A stretch of DNA of 64,000 nt from an uncultured Planctomycetaceae bacterium (lineage in GTDB: Bacteria; Planctomycetota; Phycisphaerae; SM23-33), in assembly GCA_964401835.1 (NCBI GenBank), contig CAYNZP010000009.1, positions 18,020-82,019 of the forward strand, written 5' to 3'. Each line of letters begins with the position of its first letter. Within the stretch, counting starts at the first letter, position 1. Both the position numbers and the translations under genes were made by a program. The notes beneath the pieces were generated by a model. The model made no database searches, was not told the DNA's origin, and was given only the letters and a program-made list of their open reading frames with translations. Positions 7,804-43,568 of the stretch are shown one piece after another.

Positions 7804-8166
7804 TTAGCCGATCGCTTTAAATTCTTTCATGGCGGCTGATTCGTCGTCGGCAAAGGTCATTATTTTGTCCAGCCCCATGACCTTGAATATCTCACGCAAA
7901 CTTGGACGCAAACCGCAAAGTACGACCTTGCCCTTTATCGCCTTGGATTTTTTATTCAATGCCGCCAGGACGCCCAGCATCTGCGAAGAAAGGAAGCTTA
8001 CCTTGCTGAAATCGACAATAATCTTTCGACAGGCGCGGTCATCCACGAGGCTGTAAAGTGAATTGCCGATTTCTTCGATGGCCACCATATCCAGAAGTGA
8101 CTGAACCTGCAGCCTCGCTATCGTTACATCCATTAACTTGGAAACAATTAATCCCTGGGCAGCCAT
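7804..8166 (-). CDS. STAS-domain anti-sigma-factor antagonist (SpoIIAA-like)
   Basis: 120 aa with the STAS pattern (IIVDFSKVSFLSSQMLGVL...LCGLRPSLREIFKVMGLD). Confidence 0.7.
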   Translation of the reverse strand: MAAQGLIVSKLMDVTIARLQVQSLLDMVAIEEIGNSLYSLVDDRACRKIIVDFSKVSFLSSQMLGVLAALNKKSKAIKGKVVLCGLRPSLREIFKVMGLDKIMTFADDESAAMKEFKAIG

Positions 8167-8243
8167 GTTTACCTCATAATTTAATTCGACCCAGGCAGAA
8201 GTTTACAACAGTCAGTTTTTGGGCACAATAAAATAGCAAAATA

Positions 8244-8420
8244 AGAGCCCCTAATAAAACCTCCCGCGGCCGCGACGCCTGATTTTTTGTTCGCAGACAA
8301 GAAGCGAGGAAGATACGATGCTTCGAGCATCATTGACTTTCGAGTGACGATGTATGCGGACAAAAGGGTCGGCGTCCCGTAGGGTTTGGCCGAAAATCGG
8401 CGTCTGCCGCGTTGCGGCTC
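8244..8420 (+). repeat. Conserved ~177-bp intergenic repeat, copy A
   Basis: Near-identical (few mismatches) to the reverse complement of 29993-30168. Contains CTCCCGCGGCCGCGACGCC and GCATCATTGACTTTCGAG blocks. Confidence 0.85.
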
Positions 8421-8476: not shown

Positions 8477-8959
8477 ATGGAGCGGTTTTTCAAGCGGATG
8501 GGTAGAAAAAAACGCTGGCTGGCCCTGTCGTTGGCAGCAGTTGGCGTCGTCTTGCTGGTTGTGGGCTTGAGCCTTTTTATCTCTAACAGCCAAGACCAAA
8601 GCAAACGCAGTGTCGGAGCCTGCCTGATCTTTTTTGGCATGATCTTTCTGGCTTTGGGGGTAACTATCTTTAAACCGCCAAGGTCGACAATTGATGATGA
8701 AAAACTTAAACTTCTGAAAACTAAATCAAATCTTTCTCAGAAACAAATACAATACGCGATCAAGGCTGTCCTTTTCCGCAACGGAAACAACGGCGTCAAG
8801 ATTAACGACCTGACGACGGAGTTGCAGTTGTCTTATGGCGTAAATAAGTTCGACACTATCAGGGTGGCCAAGTTGCTCGAAAGGAAAGGCCAGGCCATTT
8901 TAGAGGTTCCATTTTCCGCCGACACAGGCGAGACTCTTGTATTCTGGGTCGAATCGTAA
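8477..8959 (+). CDS. Hypothetical membrane protein
   Basis: One or two N-terminal TM helices (WLALSLAAVGVVLLVVGLSLFI; LIFFGMIFLALGVTIF). No recognisable domain. Confidence 0.45.
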   Translation: MERFFKRMGRKKRWLALSLAAVGVVLLVVGLSLFISNSQDQSKRSVGACLIFFGMIFLALGVTIFKPPRSTIDDEKLKLLKTKSNLSQKQIQYAIKAVLFRNGNNGVKINDLTTELQLSYGVNKFDTIRVAKLLERKGQAILEVPFSADTGETLVFWVES

Positions 8960-28746: not shown

Positions 28747-29874
28747 CTACCACTTCAATTTAAGCGTAGCCAGCGCCAGTGCGGCGAAAATAAGACCCAT
28801 AACCCAGAAACGAATCACCACCTTGGACTCCGACCAGCCGCCCAGGTGGAAATGATGATGTAGCGGAGCACACCGGAAAAGCCTCTTACCATCCATGCCG
28901 CCCGGTGATTTTGTCAGCTTGAAATAGCCAATCTGAAGCAGGACACTTACGGCTTCCATAACGAAAACACCGCCGGCAATCAGCAGAAGAAGTTCCTGCC
29001 GTGTAACAACAGCAATAAAACCGATAAGCCCGCCAAGCGGAAGCGAACCGGTATCACCCATGAAAACCTGGGCGGGATGCGCGTTGTACCACATGAAACC
29101 CACACAGGCACCGAGCATAGCTGCACACAGAACCGTCATCTCCGCTGAACCAGCTACCACGGGAAGTTCGAAAAAGCTCGCCCATTCTGAAACGCCAACT
29201 ATCCAGGAAATAAGCAAAAACACAGCCGCCACAATCGCAACCGAGCCGGTCGCAAGACCGTCCATGCCGTCAGTGAGATTTACCGCATTGCACGAACCGA
29301 CCATGGTCAGGATTGTAATTATCATGTAGACGATCATCGGTAGATAAAAATGCCAGCTTGTAAACGGCAGATAAAAACTGTGGGCGGGATTAACCACCTC
29401 GCCTGTAGAGTCGACGATTGTGCTTTGGCTGCCGTATTGGCGGATGAAAATCGAGAGCAAAACGGCCAGACCAATCTGGAAAATGATTTTTTCCCACATT
29501 TTCAATCCGTCGCGAGAGCCCGTCCCAGCCGAGAAACGCAACTTGAGCCAATCGTCGATAGCGCCCAACACTCCCAGCCAAACAAGAGCGACAAAGGCCA
29601 TGCGAATGTACATGTTGAAAATGTTTGCGAACAACAAAATGGAAATAAAAATCGCGATTACGATCAATGCCCCGCCCATTGTCGGAGTGTTTGACTTGCT
29701 GCGAGTCAGTTCGTTGAGGTCGGCGTGGTTAAATTCCGGCTTGTCACCGACTTTGCTGCGAATCAGAAAGCGGATCATGCGAGGAGCCAGTAAAACGACT
29801 ATGAGAAAACTCACCACTGCCGCACCGACAATCCGCAGTATCAAACCTGTATAGCCAAGAAGCCAATAAACCAC
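28747..29874 (-). CDS. mraY: Phospho-N-acetylmuramoyl-pentapeptide transferase MraY
   Basis: MraY motifs (NAVNLTDGMDGLA, FMGDTGSL). Confidence 0.9.
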   Translation of the reverse strand: MVYWLLGYTGLILRIVGAAVVSFLIVVLLAPRMIRFLIRSKVGDKPEFNHADLNELTRSKSNTPTMGGALIVIAIFISILLFANIFNMYIRMAFVALVWLGVLGAIDDWLKLRFSAGTGSRDGLKMWEKIIFQIGLAVLLSIFIRQYGSQSTIVDSTGEVVNPAHSFYLPFTSWHFYLPMIVYMIITILTMVGSCNAVNLTDGMDGLATGSVAIVAAVFLLISWIVGVSEWASFFELPVVAGSAEMTVLCAAMLGACVGFMWYNAHPAQVFMGDTGSLPLGGLIGFIAVVTRQELLLLIAGGVFVMEAVSVLLQIGYFKLTKSPGGMDGKRLFRCAPLHHHFHLGGWSESKVVIRFWVMGLIFAALALATLKLKW

Positions 29875-29992
29875 AGCTTATTTCCTGTAATACCTAGAGT
29901 CCCTAACAAAATCTCGCGCTAGCCGCGTTTGGCCCAAAATCGAATGGCTACAAGGCGACGGCGACGACGCCATACCTTGATGGTATGGCGAG

Positions 29993-30168
29993 GAGTCGCA
30001 ACGTAGCAGACATCGATTTTCGGCCAAACCCTACGGGACGCAGCCCTTTTGTCCGCATACGGCGTCGCTCGAAAGTCAATGATGCCACAGGCATCGTATC
30101 CTCCTCGCTCCTTGCCTGCGAACAAAAAATCTGGCGTCGCGGCCGCGGGAGGTTTTGTTAGGGGCTCT
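29993..30168 (-). repeat. Conserved ~177-bp intergenic repeat, copy B (inverted relative to copy A)
   Basis: Reverse complement matches 8244-8420 almost base for base. Lies between mraY and murF inside the dcw operon. Confidence 0.85.
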
Positions 30169-31546
30169 CACTCAAAAAGGCCCGGCGGATCGGCTCGATA
30201 AGCCTTTCCATCTCCATGGCCCTGGAACCCTTAATTAAAACAGTATCGCCCTTGCATAGCAATTCGGCAATACCTTCGCAGGCAAATTGAACGGAGTCAA
30301 ACACCTGTGCCCGCAGACCAGCTTGTTGTGCTCCCTTGGCGATATATCGACCTAGAGGCCCTACTGATATGAGAAAATCGACCTGGCGTTTTGCGATATT
30401 CTCGCCCAGTTTCTCGTGCAGAACCTCAGCCGCCGACCCGAGCTCGAGCATATCGCCGAGGACTGCGACCTTTCGAGTTGTTTGGCAATCGGCCAGGACA
30501 TCGACCGCAGCTGAAACGCTCGCTGGATTGGCATTGTAGGCGTCATTTATGACAGTAAGGCCGTCAAGGCCAATCCACTCAAGGCGCATATCCACACCGT
30601 CAAAATCTTTCAGGGCTTCGGCTGCTTCCTCTTGGCTAAAACCAAAACGCTGGGCAACGGCAATGGCAGCCAGGGCATTCATGGCGTTGTGCTTGCCGGG
30701 CAAGGGTAGATCGACCCAGAAGCGGCCGTTGACCTGAAAACGGCAATTTCGACCTTGAGATTCATAACCGCTCAGCCGCAAATCTGCATTTTTACTCTTG
30801 CCGAAACGGACAAATTTCGCCTTATGGCTACGCAAAACCAGATTTAGCTCTTCACTATCGGCAAACACTACGGCAAAACCGCTTTTCTCAAGTGAGCCGA
30901 CAAGCGACGCCTTCTCGATTGCCACATTCTGCAAATCGCCAAAGCCTTCAAGATGCGAAGGACCAATGCAGGTTACAACGGTGATGTCCGGCTGGGATAT
31001 CTTTCCAAGCGAAGCTATCTCTCCCGGAGCGTTCGAGCCTATCTCGCAGACGACATAATCGTCTCCGGGATTTATACCCAGCAGTGTCAATGGTACCCCG
31101 ATTTCATTGTTGAAACTCTTGGGGCTGCACGAACCGGTAAGCCGCTTGGAAAGAATATGATGAATTAACCGTTTGACCGTCGTCTTGCCGTTTGAACCGG
31201 TAACGCCAACCACTCTCGCCGACGAAAGCTTGCGATTATAACAGCCCAGGTCTCCCAGAGCTTCAACGGTATCTCCTACACCGATTAGCCCACCTGTGAA
31301 AAGCTTTGTAACATCTGGCGGAGGTTCTCTATCACGGCGGATAATACCCGCAACCGCGCCAGCTTTGGCAGCCGGAGCGAGGAAGCCATGACCGTCGAAG
31401 TTATCTCCTTCAATGGCCAGAAAAAGATCGCCTTTTTTTGTCGTTCTACTGTCAGTAGAGATGTTATTGACGGTAATATCGCTGGAATTGGCCAGCCATC
31501 TGCCGCGTGTCGCGCGGCGAATTTCCTCTAAACTGACCGGCTTCAT
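30158..31546 (-). CDS. murF: UDP-MurNAc-tripeptide D-Ala-D-Ala ligase MurF
   Basis: Mur ligase domains (GVTGSNGKTT). Confidence 0.85.
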   Translation of the reverse strand: MKPVSLEEIRRATRGRWLANSSDITVNNISTDSRTTKKGDLFLAIEGDNFDGHGFLAPAAKAGAVAGIIRRDREPPPDVTKLFTGGLIGVGDTVEALGDLGCYNRKLSSARVVGVTGSNGKTTVKRLIHHILSKRLTGSCSPKSFNNEIGVPLTLLGINPGDDYVVCEIGSNAPGEIASLGKISQPDITVVTCIGPSHLEGFGDLQNVAIEKASLVGSLEKSGFAVVFADSEELNLVLRSHKAKFVRFGKSKNADLRLSGYESQGRNCRFQVNGRFWVDLPLPGKHNAMNALAAIAVAQRFGFSQEEAAEALKDFDGVDMRLEWIGLDGLTVINDAYNANPASVSAAVDVLADCQTTRKVAVLGDMLELGSAAEVLHEKLGENIAKRQVDFLISVGPLGRYIAKGAQQAGLRAQVFDSVQFACEGIAELLCKGDTVLIKGSRAMEMERLIEPIRRAFLSESP

Positions 31547-41173: not shown

Positions 41174-41521
41174 TCAAAGATCTTCTGCTTCAGATTTACG
41201 AATTTCAGCCTCAATTCTATTCTTACGGTCCCAGATAATAATGTACGTTGTCAAACGTATATGTGCCCAAAGCTTCATTACTGCGACATTAACAATTCCT
41301 ACAATACCCAAAAATAATCCAATAGCATGTTGCTTTAAATTATCGTCAGGGGCATTAAAGATAATGTTTAGCCCCCAAAGCGTAATAAATACGGACAACG
41401 ATAGAAAAATCCAATATGTTATTTCTGTTTTCCGAACTTTCTTTAGAATATCATCACATGTTGGAGTTTCTTTAAAGCTCTCTGCCCAGTTAAATAATCT
41501 CATAGTAAATCTCCCATTCAT
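41174..41521 (-). CDS. Small 3-TM membrane protein
   Basis: Overlaps the upstream HTH gene by ATGA. AT-rich patch. Confidence 0.4.
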   Translation of the reverse strand: MNGRFTMRLFNWAESFKETPTCDDILKKVRKTEITYWIFLSLSVFITLWGLNIIFNAPDDNLKQHAIGLFLGIVGIVNVAVMKLWAHIRLTTYIIIWDRKNRIEAEIRKSEAEDL

Positions 41522-41811
41522 TTGTCGCTTTGTTCAAAAGCCTTGATTAATGTTTTGGCTATTGAAAGATCTAGTTTTCCTTCGACTACCAGCAATTTGA
41601 TTTTTCGATGAAACGATGTTTTCGGTTTCTTAGAATCAAGGATTTTCACTTTCTCAATAAGGCGATTCAGCCTAATTCGGACCGTGGGATAAGAAATGCC
41701 ATATTGTCGAGCAATCTCCTTAAGTGATCCAGAGGCCAGCAACAGTCGTTTAATAAACTGCCAGTCCTCTTCGCCTAAGCCTCTAACCCATTCTGGAATT
41801 TCAGAATCCAT
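41518..41811 (-). CDS. DUF2089-like HTH protein
   Basis: EIARQYGISYPTVRIRLNRL resembles the DUF2089 C-terminal HTH. Confidence 0.5.
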   Translation of the reverse strand: MDSEIPEWVRGLGEEDWQFIKRLLLASGSLKEIARQYGISYPTVRIRLNRLIEKVKILDSKKPKTSFHRKIKLLVVEGKLDLSIAKTLIKAFEQSDK

Positions 41812-42143: not shown

Positions 42144-42286
42144 ATTTAAAAACTTGGCAGTTTTGGGCAGAATTGGGCACATTTGGGCAGAACTGGGCAG
42201 AATTGGGCAGTTTTGGGCAGAACTGGGCAGTTTTGGGCAGATTTGGGCAGTTTCGGGCAGCTTTCGGCAAACAGAGGCAGGCTCGA
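42144..42286 (+). repeat. About 14 tandem copies of a 10-bp unit (NNNTGGGCAG), perfectly phased
   Basis: Visible directly in the sequence as a GGCAG recurrence every 10 nt. Located 100-240 nt upstream of the 42387 gene. Confidence 0.9.
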
Positions 42287-42386: not shown

Positions 42387-43568
42387 GTGAACGAACAACT
42401 CGCTTACGCCCTGATAACACCATATAGCCTCTACAAAAGCCGAACCGGCGGCATCATCGGCCGGCTCCTCTCACACGCCCAGCTCGAACTCGTGGACGTC
42501 CGCATGTTCGTCTTCAGCGATGCCTTTGTAGATGCCTACAAGAAAGTCGTATGTCCGGAAGGCATGGACCCTGCCATTGCAGAAGCGTGGCATAAGTATC
42601 TGGACCTGTCGCTGCGTCAGGACAACAGATGGGGCCGTGTGCCCCGCTGCATGCTGCTGCTGCTTCGCGGCCAAGACGCCGTTCGCCACCTCAAAGACGA
42701 GGTCGTCGGCGGCTTTACTGATCAGCTTGTTGGCGACACTATCCGCGGCACTTATGGAGACTTCATTCGTGATGAAGACGGCAAGGTTCACTACTTCGAG
42801 CCGGCTGTCATTACCTGCCCCGATGTGAAATTGAACAACGAGCATCTGAAACTCTTTGCCGAATACGCCACAACCGACGGCGGCGTCCTCACCGACCGCG
42901 TCAAGTACGATGAAGGCAAGCCGGAAGTATCGCTGGTAATGCTCAAGCCCGACAATTTCTACCGTGCAAGCCGCCGGCCGGGAAATATTATCGACACGTT
43001 CAGCTGGACCGGCCTGAAGATCGTCGGAGCCAAGCTTTTCAATATGACCGTCGCACAGGGCGAAGAATTCTACGGCCCGCTGAAGAGCCTCTTCGTCGAC
43101 AAGCTCAAATTCAAGGTAGCCAACGAAGTTTATGAGCGGCTGAGCGACGCGTTTGACTTCGAGTTCAACGCCGACGACGCCGACGTACTGGCCCAGAAGC
43201 TGGCTGAGCGAAACGCGATTACCGAGTTCAACAAGATCGTCGAATTCATGACCGGAGTCAGCCCCGACGAAATTACCGATCCGCAGGAAAAGAAAACCGC
43301 CAGCAAGACTACATGCCTGGCGCTACTTTACGAGGGGCCGGACGCGATTGAAAAGATCCGCACCGTTCTGGGTTCGACCGATCCGACAAAGGCAGAGCCT
43401 GGCACGGTTCGTAGCGACTTCGGCCGCGACCTGATGCGTAACGGTGCTCACGCTTCGGACTCGACGGAAAACGCAATGCGTGAAAGAAAGATCGTCGGCC
43501 TGGCGAAAACCGAAAAAGACACCTGCCGTTTTGCCGAGATTATCGGGGAGTACATCGATAAGAAGTAA
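42387..43568 (+). CDS. Nucleoside-diphosphate-kinase-like protein with duplicated NDK fold
   Basis: Second domain has KPD and NGAHASDS (catalytic-His region) NDK motifs. First domain is degenerate. Confidence 0.5.
   Translation: MNEQLAYALITPYSLYKSRTGGIIGRLLSHAQLELVDVRMFVFSDAFVDAYKKVVCPEGMDPAIAEAWHKYLDLSLRQDNRWGRVPRCMLLLLRGQDAVRHLKDEVVGGFTDQLVGDTIRGTYGDFIRDEDGKVHYFEPAVITCPDVKLNNEHLKLFAEYATTDGGVLTDRVKYDEGKPEVSLVMLKPDNFYRASRRPGNIIDTFSWTGLKIVGAKLFNMTVAQGEEFYGPLKSLFVDKLKFKVANEVYERLSDAFDFEFNADDADVLAQKLAERNAITEFNKIVEFMTGVSPDEITDPQEKKTASKTTCLALLYEGPDAIEKIRTVLGSTDPTKAEPGTVRSDFGRDLMRNGAHASDSTENAMRERKIVGLAKTEKDTCRFAEIIGEYIDKK

Follow-up and report, generated by a model that had tools for sequence, protein, structure and literature searches.

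A probable MITE family with IS5-type terminal repeats in an uncultured marine planctomycete, with one copy lying between murF and mraY

What kind of sequence is the repeat of about 177 bp that occurs twice, in inverted orientation, within the 64-kb stretch of planctomycete DNA analysed here (the window), and what has it done to the dcw operon in which one of its copies lies? The initial annotation had described a conserved non-coding repeat and proposed for it either a MITE/REP-like element or a small-RNA gene family. The repeat pair is real: positions 8244-8420 (plus strand, copy A) and 29993-30168 (minus strand, copy B) align over 177 columns with 89% identity, and careful alignment left the identity at that level (89.3% by MAFFT and blastn, with 18 substitutions and one single-base indel, 13 of the 18 substitutions being transitions in the global alignment). 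A repeat search of the window returned the same relationship as two inverted arm pairs, 8244-8368/30044-30168 (125 nt, 90%) and 8363-8420/29993-30050 (58 nt, 86%), and nhmmer assigned both copies E-values of 1e-63 to 1e-65. The internal palindromes that had been described were found as well, exemplified by CGCGGCCGCG, a 10-nt palindrome at 8265-8274 in copy A and at the corresponding position in copy B. The limits of the repeat had to be corrected by one nucleotide, in that its reported first base (8244 / 30168) belongs to the flank and the element starts with the G at 8245 / 30167. The extent reported for copy B was accurate for the part shared with copy A, but the true length of this copy is 271 bp rather than 176, as it runs a further 96 bp past the shared part to 29897, the site of a second terminal inverted repeat.

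The ends of the element were defined by searching the window for the 19-mer GAGCCCCTAACAAAACCTC with up to three mismatches, which yielded three sites only (8245-8263, 30149-30167 and, inverted, 29897-29915) where 0.02 sites per window are expected by chance. Copy B has terminal inverted repeats at both ends, 271 bp apart, and its two arms match at 27/32 positions (blastn), whereas copy A has the left repeat only. At the right end of copy A we saw a degenerate repeat (reverse complement GAGCCGCAAC) and no terminal repeat within three mismatches, and the similarity between the copies ends at 8420, beyond which their sequences are unrelated. Copy A is probably no longer mobile, because its right terminal repeat is missing, and the existence of a 176-bp and a 271-bp form could reflect either a deletion or two subfamilies. 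The parts of the two copies are as follows.

8245 to 8420, plus strand: copy A, the one-ended form of 176 bp, consisting of the left terminal repeat and the shared interior, 89% identical to copy B
8245 to 8263, plus strand: left terminal inverted repeat of copy A, GAGCCCCTAATAAAACCTC, with one mismatch to the repeat of copy B
8274 to 8376, plus strand: hairpin I of copy A, with a long and imperfect stem (from folding)
29897 to 30167, minus strand: copy B, the full element of 271 bp between murF and mraY, with both terminal repeats found
30149 to 30167, minus strand: left terminal inverted repeat of copy B, GAGCCCCTAACAAAACCTC (19-mer search, 0 mismatches)
30045 to 30137: hairpin I of copy B (from folding)
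29993 to 30167, minus strand: the part of copy B common to copy A (from the alignment)
29916 to 29992, minus strand: right-arm interior, present in copy B only (read from the sequence, folding and blastn)
29897 to 29915, plus strand: right terminal inverted repeat of copy B, reading GAGTCCCTAACAAAATCTC (19-mer search, 2 mismatches)
29872 to 29896, minus strand: right flank of copy B, comprising AGGAAA (the ribosome-binding site of mraY) and the GTG start codon of that gene (29872-29874)

The left repeat of copy A is preceded by TAA (8242-8244) and that of copy B by TGA (30168-30170), and the right repeat of copy B, read on the element strand, is followed by TAG (29894-29896). The apical hairpin of hairpin I in copy A is GATGCTTCGAGCATC (8317-8331). 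The right-arm interior of copy B contains CGATTTTGGGCCAAAC, one half of a hairpin II whose other half is GTTTGGCCGAAAATCG at 30014-30029, together with a perfect small hairpin, CGCCATACC-ATCAA-GGTATGGCG, and blastn recovered an internal inverted match in this copy at 29927-30029.

The differences between copies A and B show a synonymous excess in none of the six frames, in agreement with the earlier view that the repeat is not protein coding. The accompanying statement that the short open reading frames overlapping the copies are unrelated to one another was mistaken, since those at 8181-8363 (minus strand) and 30049-30201 (plus strand) share a frame and agree at about 80% over 40 aa; this likeness only reflects the identity of the underlying DNA, and both frames are still non-coding. 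Public annotations place a 48-aa gene at 29948-30094 (minus strand), wholly within copy B. This gene call is almost certainly spurious: no relatives were found among 1.84 billion cluster representatives, and an exact-sequence look-up of seven spurious open reading frames of the element found only the 48-aa frame on record, as the sole member of its cluster. An exhaustive HMMER search with a 69-aa open frame of copy B returned the query itself and three low-complexity matches only. The genes around copy A are those named initially, with the STAS gene (7804-8166, minus strand) on one side and on the other a 160-aa gene (8477-8959, plus strand) whose product has a hydrophobic N-terminus, and both copies indeed lie in the sense orientation toward the gene downstream of them.

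No third copy was present in the 64-kb window, nor did one turn up when the search was extended by about 18.5 kb along the source, a 213-kb JGI metagenome contig, making some 82 kb of DNA in all. An exact scan for the conserved interior 21-mer CCCGTAGGGTTTGGCCGAAAA in genome and metagenome collections from which the source contigs are absent gave 0 matches, and copy B had no blastn match in plasmid and phage collections. The identical window sequence is present in several ENA and Logan assemblies, and its MurF is about 60% identical to the nearest named homologues, which come from Phycisphaerae MAGs. Two Logan contigs of run SRR8062346 break inside the element, one (L003) ending at window position 30139, 29 nt into copy B, and the other (L087) beginning at 8388, inside copy A; copies A and B have no exact 31-mer in common. 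These breaks within both copies hint weakly at further copies in the sample, or at assembly trouble at the hairpins.

The window contains one further repeat of a different kind, a tandem array at 42156-42269 in which a 10-bp unit (consensus TTTTGGGCAG) recurs about 11 times, each unit consisting of an A/T-rich spacer and GGGCAG and the units being phased at exactly one helical turn. It sits in a 575-bp gap between a gene for a DUF2089 HTH-domain protein (41518-41811, minus strand) and a gene of 393 aa (42387-43568, plus strand) whose product has an NDK domain, and could represent phased protein-binding sites or intrinsically bent DNA.

The terminus of the element led to known relatives. A degenerate form of the 19-mer, GAGYCCCTAAYAAAAYCTC, matched 56 metagenome contigs, mostly from soil, and among 46 distinct termini 36 were directly preceded by TAA or TTA and four more by CTA. 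Where a terminus had a partner, the same TTA or TAA stood at both ends in 14 of about 18 distinct cases, as expected of a 3-bp duplication, and the elements so bounded measured 88 to 1695 bp. Four of them (L130, L096, L118 and L089) are miniature elements, 88-164 bp in length, that share these termini, and the terminus thus commonly bounds miniature derivatives. Three others (L128, L104 and L113; 849, 876 and 909 bp) carry the 19-mer of the window at their ends and two overlapping open reading frames each, which match DUF4096 and DDE_Tnp_1 and which, when joined, match the NCBIfam model NF033580 (IS5 family transposase; IS5_3) with 241 bits against a cut-off of 110. Their nearest named relatives, found on annotated plasmids, are IS1421 and ISAzba7, both at 63% amino acid identity and with ends like the terminus in the window, starting with GAG and having the core (C)TAACAAAACC. 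We take IS1421 (Ralstonia solanacearum) and ISAzba7 (Azospirillum) to be placed in the IS427 group in ISfinder. Members of this group are 800-1000 bp long and have two frameshifted open reading frames, a DDE transposase and a 2-4 bp duplication (PMC3281130), a description that the full-length metagenome elements with the shared terminus fit (849-909 bp, two open reading frames, 3-bp TWA duplication). The terminal 19-mer had no match in viral contigs, and in a negative control of distant MraY-bearing loci (at most 38% identity, almost all from Bacteroidota) it had 0 matches in 1.4 Mb.

Because the same 19-mer terminates IS5-family insertion sequences and mini-elements, we conclude that the two copies very probably belong to one MITE family with IS5-family terminal repeats, apparently of the IS427 group. 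At 271 and 176 bp both are shorter than the limit of about 600 bp for MITEs, neither has a conserved open reading frame, and their terminus is that of autonomous insertion sequences (L113, L104 and L128). They differ from IS427-group insertion sequences in that they have no transposase, that their interior is unrelated to that of the full-length elements and that their flanks are not clean duplications. A tblastn search of the window found no relative of an IS5-family transposase, and a matching autonomous element was absent from the 82 kb of this organism's DNA. A full-length insertion sequence, at another site in the genome or in an ancestor, would have supplied the transposase that moved such a transposase-less element in trans. 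Of the possibilities offered by the initial annotation, MITE-like is the one that the terminal repeats and the IS5 match bear out, while REP-like and small-RNA gene family are not supported.

The same terminal repeats also bound larger elements in the soil metagenomes. Three of these (L102, L114 and L121; 1060, 1098 and 1003 bp) encode, instead of a transposase, a protein of 142-165 aa with a signal-peptide-like N-terminus, and a fourth (L106, 1695 bp) has a 485-aa open frame for a repeat protein. The flanks of L114, L121 and L106 are matching TTA/TAA duplications and those of L102 are TAA / TTA; none of the four proteins has a Pfam match above the cut-off. They look like passenger-carrying mobile cassettes, and we would liken them to mobile insertion cassettes (MICs), in which terminal inverted repeats enclose passenger genes. 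Window copies differ from such cassettes in containing no conserved open reading frame.

The flanks of the two copies were inspected for target-site duplications, as had been suggested at the outset, with a mixed result: copy B lies between TGA and TAG and copy A between TAA and TAC, so that neither has an identical pair, where the norm for this family of termini is an identical TTA or TAA at both ends. Flanks without clean duplications, the lack of a right terminal repeat in copy A and the presence of only two copies in about 82 kb would also be compatible with a decayed insertion-sequence remnant that was copied by segmental duplication or gene conversion, rather than with transposition of a mini-element. 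However, each flank of copy B is a single transition away from TAA, and a decayed 3-bp duplication is possible in elements that have diverged by 11%. In both copies, moreover, the terminal repeat marks the exact point at which the similarity sets in, the flanks being unrelated, copy B is precisely bounded by inverted repeats, and the same termini bound many short elements elsewhere, with duplications. We therefore regard an origin by duplication or conversion as very unlikely and retain transposition of a MITE as the explanation for the pair.

Palindromic sequences adjoining gene ends are also known as REP/BIME elements, spread by a RAYT (IS200/IS605-like), and as integron attC sites. The core sites of attC read RYYYAAC / GTTRRRY, and the CCCTAAC ... 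GTTAGGG of the present element is superficially like them, but as cores these sequences are not of the R...Y form. The lengths of 271 and 176 bp far exceed those of REP sequences (20-40 nt) or attC sites (about 57-141 bp), the units are not clustered, the window contains no array and neither an integrase nor a RAYT, and the terminus is identical to that of insertion sequences with a DDE transposase and 3-bp duplications. Both candidates were rejected on these grounds, and we consider it extremely improbable that either accounts for the repeat.

The strong secondary structure of the repeat raises the question of whether the shared 177-nt unit is instead a structured RNA, either a cis-regulatory leader or a small RNA, whose transposon-like ends are incidental or serve as a vehicle. 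Copy A folds better than its shuffles (z = -3.3), and both copies are oriented alike relative to the downstream gene, although for two copies this has a 50% chance. Copy B, folded as single-stranded DNA, reaches -75 kcal/mol against -46 for shuffles (z = -7.9), in a structure composed of an outer stem formed from both termini, hairpin I, the mini-hairpin CCCGTAGGG and hairpin II, the last of which draws on the right arm specific to this copy. The two strands of the full copy B fold about equally well (-138.0 vs -136.8 kcal/mol), and equal folding on both strands is the behaviour of a DNA palindrome. Nor are the substitutions across the whole unit structure-preserving: relative to the minimum-energy fold of copy A, the changes in copy B break 6 of the 12 pairs that they touch (P = 0.43), with the breaks clustered toward the 3' end of the unit. 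Five of the 18 substitutions, all transitions, fall there within 22 nt (8400-8416 vs 29997-30012), and four of these nucleotides form two adjacent substitution pairs, GC vs AT and CG vs TA. The copy A version of this 3' cluster pairs with that copy's own left arm and the copy B version with its private right arm, and each form is thus internally palindromic in its own way.

Hairpin I behaves differently in that the substitutions break only 1 of the 5 pairs touched, compared with 4.1 expected (P about 0.025, in a test chosen post hoc and based on two sequences), its apical stem contains one compensatory change from T-A to C-G, and its sense strand is the more stable (-29.8/-34.3 vs -20.9/-26.2 kcal/mol for the antisense strand). 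The Rfam scan called for by the small-RNA proposal nevertheless gave no match at the gathering score in the window and none on the element at E <= 10; a hit to IMES-4 (14.1 bits, E = 9.5) lies almost entirely in the 3' flank of copy A. Nor was a promoter-like site found in copy B. We accordingly judge an RNA identity for the whole unit to be clearly unlikely, and the MITE assignment stands. A narrower possibility, slightly less improbable but still unlikely, is that the host has recruited hairpin I of the MITE as an RNA element of its own transcripts, to direct processing or stability in the dcw operon and to act as a leader at copy A. If so, hairpin I would serve, for example, as an RNase III site that uncouples murF and mraY expression, and as a structured leader upstream of the 160-aa membrane-protein gene.

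Two other roles were considered and set aside. As a terminator or promoter the element offers only a weak terminator-like apical hairpin in both copies, and the counts of such signals are at the level of shuffles. A retron, bridge RNA or omega-RNA was rejected on the lack of an Rfam match, of a neighbouring reverse transcriptase, recombinase or TnpB, and on the DDE-type termini.

The genes on either side suggest how copy B came to lie in the dcw operon. Its position between mraY and murF, overlapping the murF stop, is as first described, the stop codon TAA (30158-30160) lying inside the left terminal repeat, which also holds the final three codons of murF. The end of murF and the start of mraY share 4 nt (GTGA or TTGA) in three contigs from related Phycisphaerae, whereas here, where the mraY start is the GTG at 29874, they are 283 nt apart, of which the element makes up 271. 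Past the conserved EPIRxAF motif most relatives have a MurF tail of 12-20 aa, and the tail here has a length of 5 aa, LSESP, in which Ser-Pro-stop is encoded by the terminal repeat; the C-terminus of MurF is chimeric. The N-terminus of MraY, VVYWLL, agrees with the (V/L)I(Y/H/S)WL(L/F) of its relatives. Joining the two flanks with a 3-bp duplication would restore the frame ...AFLS-E-YYRK-TAA, ending 3 nt before the mraY GTG, and the original murF stop was presumably the TAA at 29878-29880 in the right flank of copy B. No murF allele lacking the insertion was found in the database, because the 90%-identity cluster of this MurF has this sequence as its only member; the next-best homologue is 62% identical. 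Relative to the related genomes, copy B is an insertion.

According to this reconstruction, copy B would have inserted itself into the final codons of murF, at a point 22 nt ahead of where mraY starts, and would have exchanged the non-conserved C-terminal tail of MurF for a Ser-Pro-stop supplied by the terminal repeat. The insertion would at the same time have come between two genes whose translation is coupled in relatives, and the dcw operon transcript would presumably read through copy B, which would then form a long RNA hairpin.

Elements of comparable organization are known from other bacteria. The Correia elements of Neisseria (CREE/NEMIS) are short non-autonomous elements with terminal inverted repeats; they occur both between genes and inside operons, including the dcw cluster (PMC2649163). 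When co-transcribed with their neighbours they form hairpins to which RNase III binds or which it cleaves, and they can create promoters (PMC2649163). If transcribed, the elements in the window would resemble Correia elements by analogy; they are not members of that family, which differs in sequence, in length (70-157 bp), in target (TA) and in copy number (>100 per genome). In Coxiella burnetii, QMITE1 and QMITE2 lie across the 3' ends of functional genes, to which they can contribute C-terminal residues and the stop codon, and QMITE2 is a hot spot for insertion of IS1111, an element of the IS110 family (PMC5896051). The QMITE sequences are unrelated to that of the window element, belong to a host of another phylum and number about 50 copies per family.

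One of the metagenome elements with the shared terminus offers a parallel to the insertion of IS1111 into QMITE2. This element (L092, 1577 bp) contains an IS110-family transposase gene (DEDD_Tnp_IS110 and Transposase_20) within the same terminal repeats and is flanked by a TAA duplication, and, by analogy, it looks like an IS110-type element inserted into a MITE.

Taken as proposed here, the repeat represents a new MITE family with IS5/IS427-type termini, and its insertion is an ordinary kind of event in bacteria that leaves our knowledge of how MITEs work unchanged. If the assignment is correct, the mobilising partner would be an NF033580 transposase gene of this genome with GAGYCCCTAACAAAAYC on its flanks. 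For annotation, it would mean that the 48-aa gene is spurious, that the C-terminus of MurF is chimeric and that assemblies tend to break at the element. Copy B would be a clear example of a MITE in the essential and normally tightly coupled murF-mraY pair, with the end of a protein rewritten without obvious harm. With this pair of copies, the uncultured marine Phycisphaerae (Planctomycetota), a lineage in which mobile elements have been little described, would also gain a MITE family and evidence for transposition of the IS5/IS427 type.
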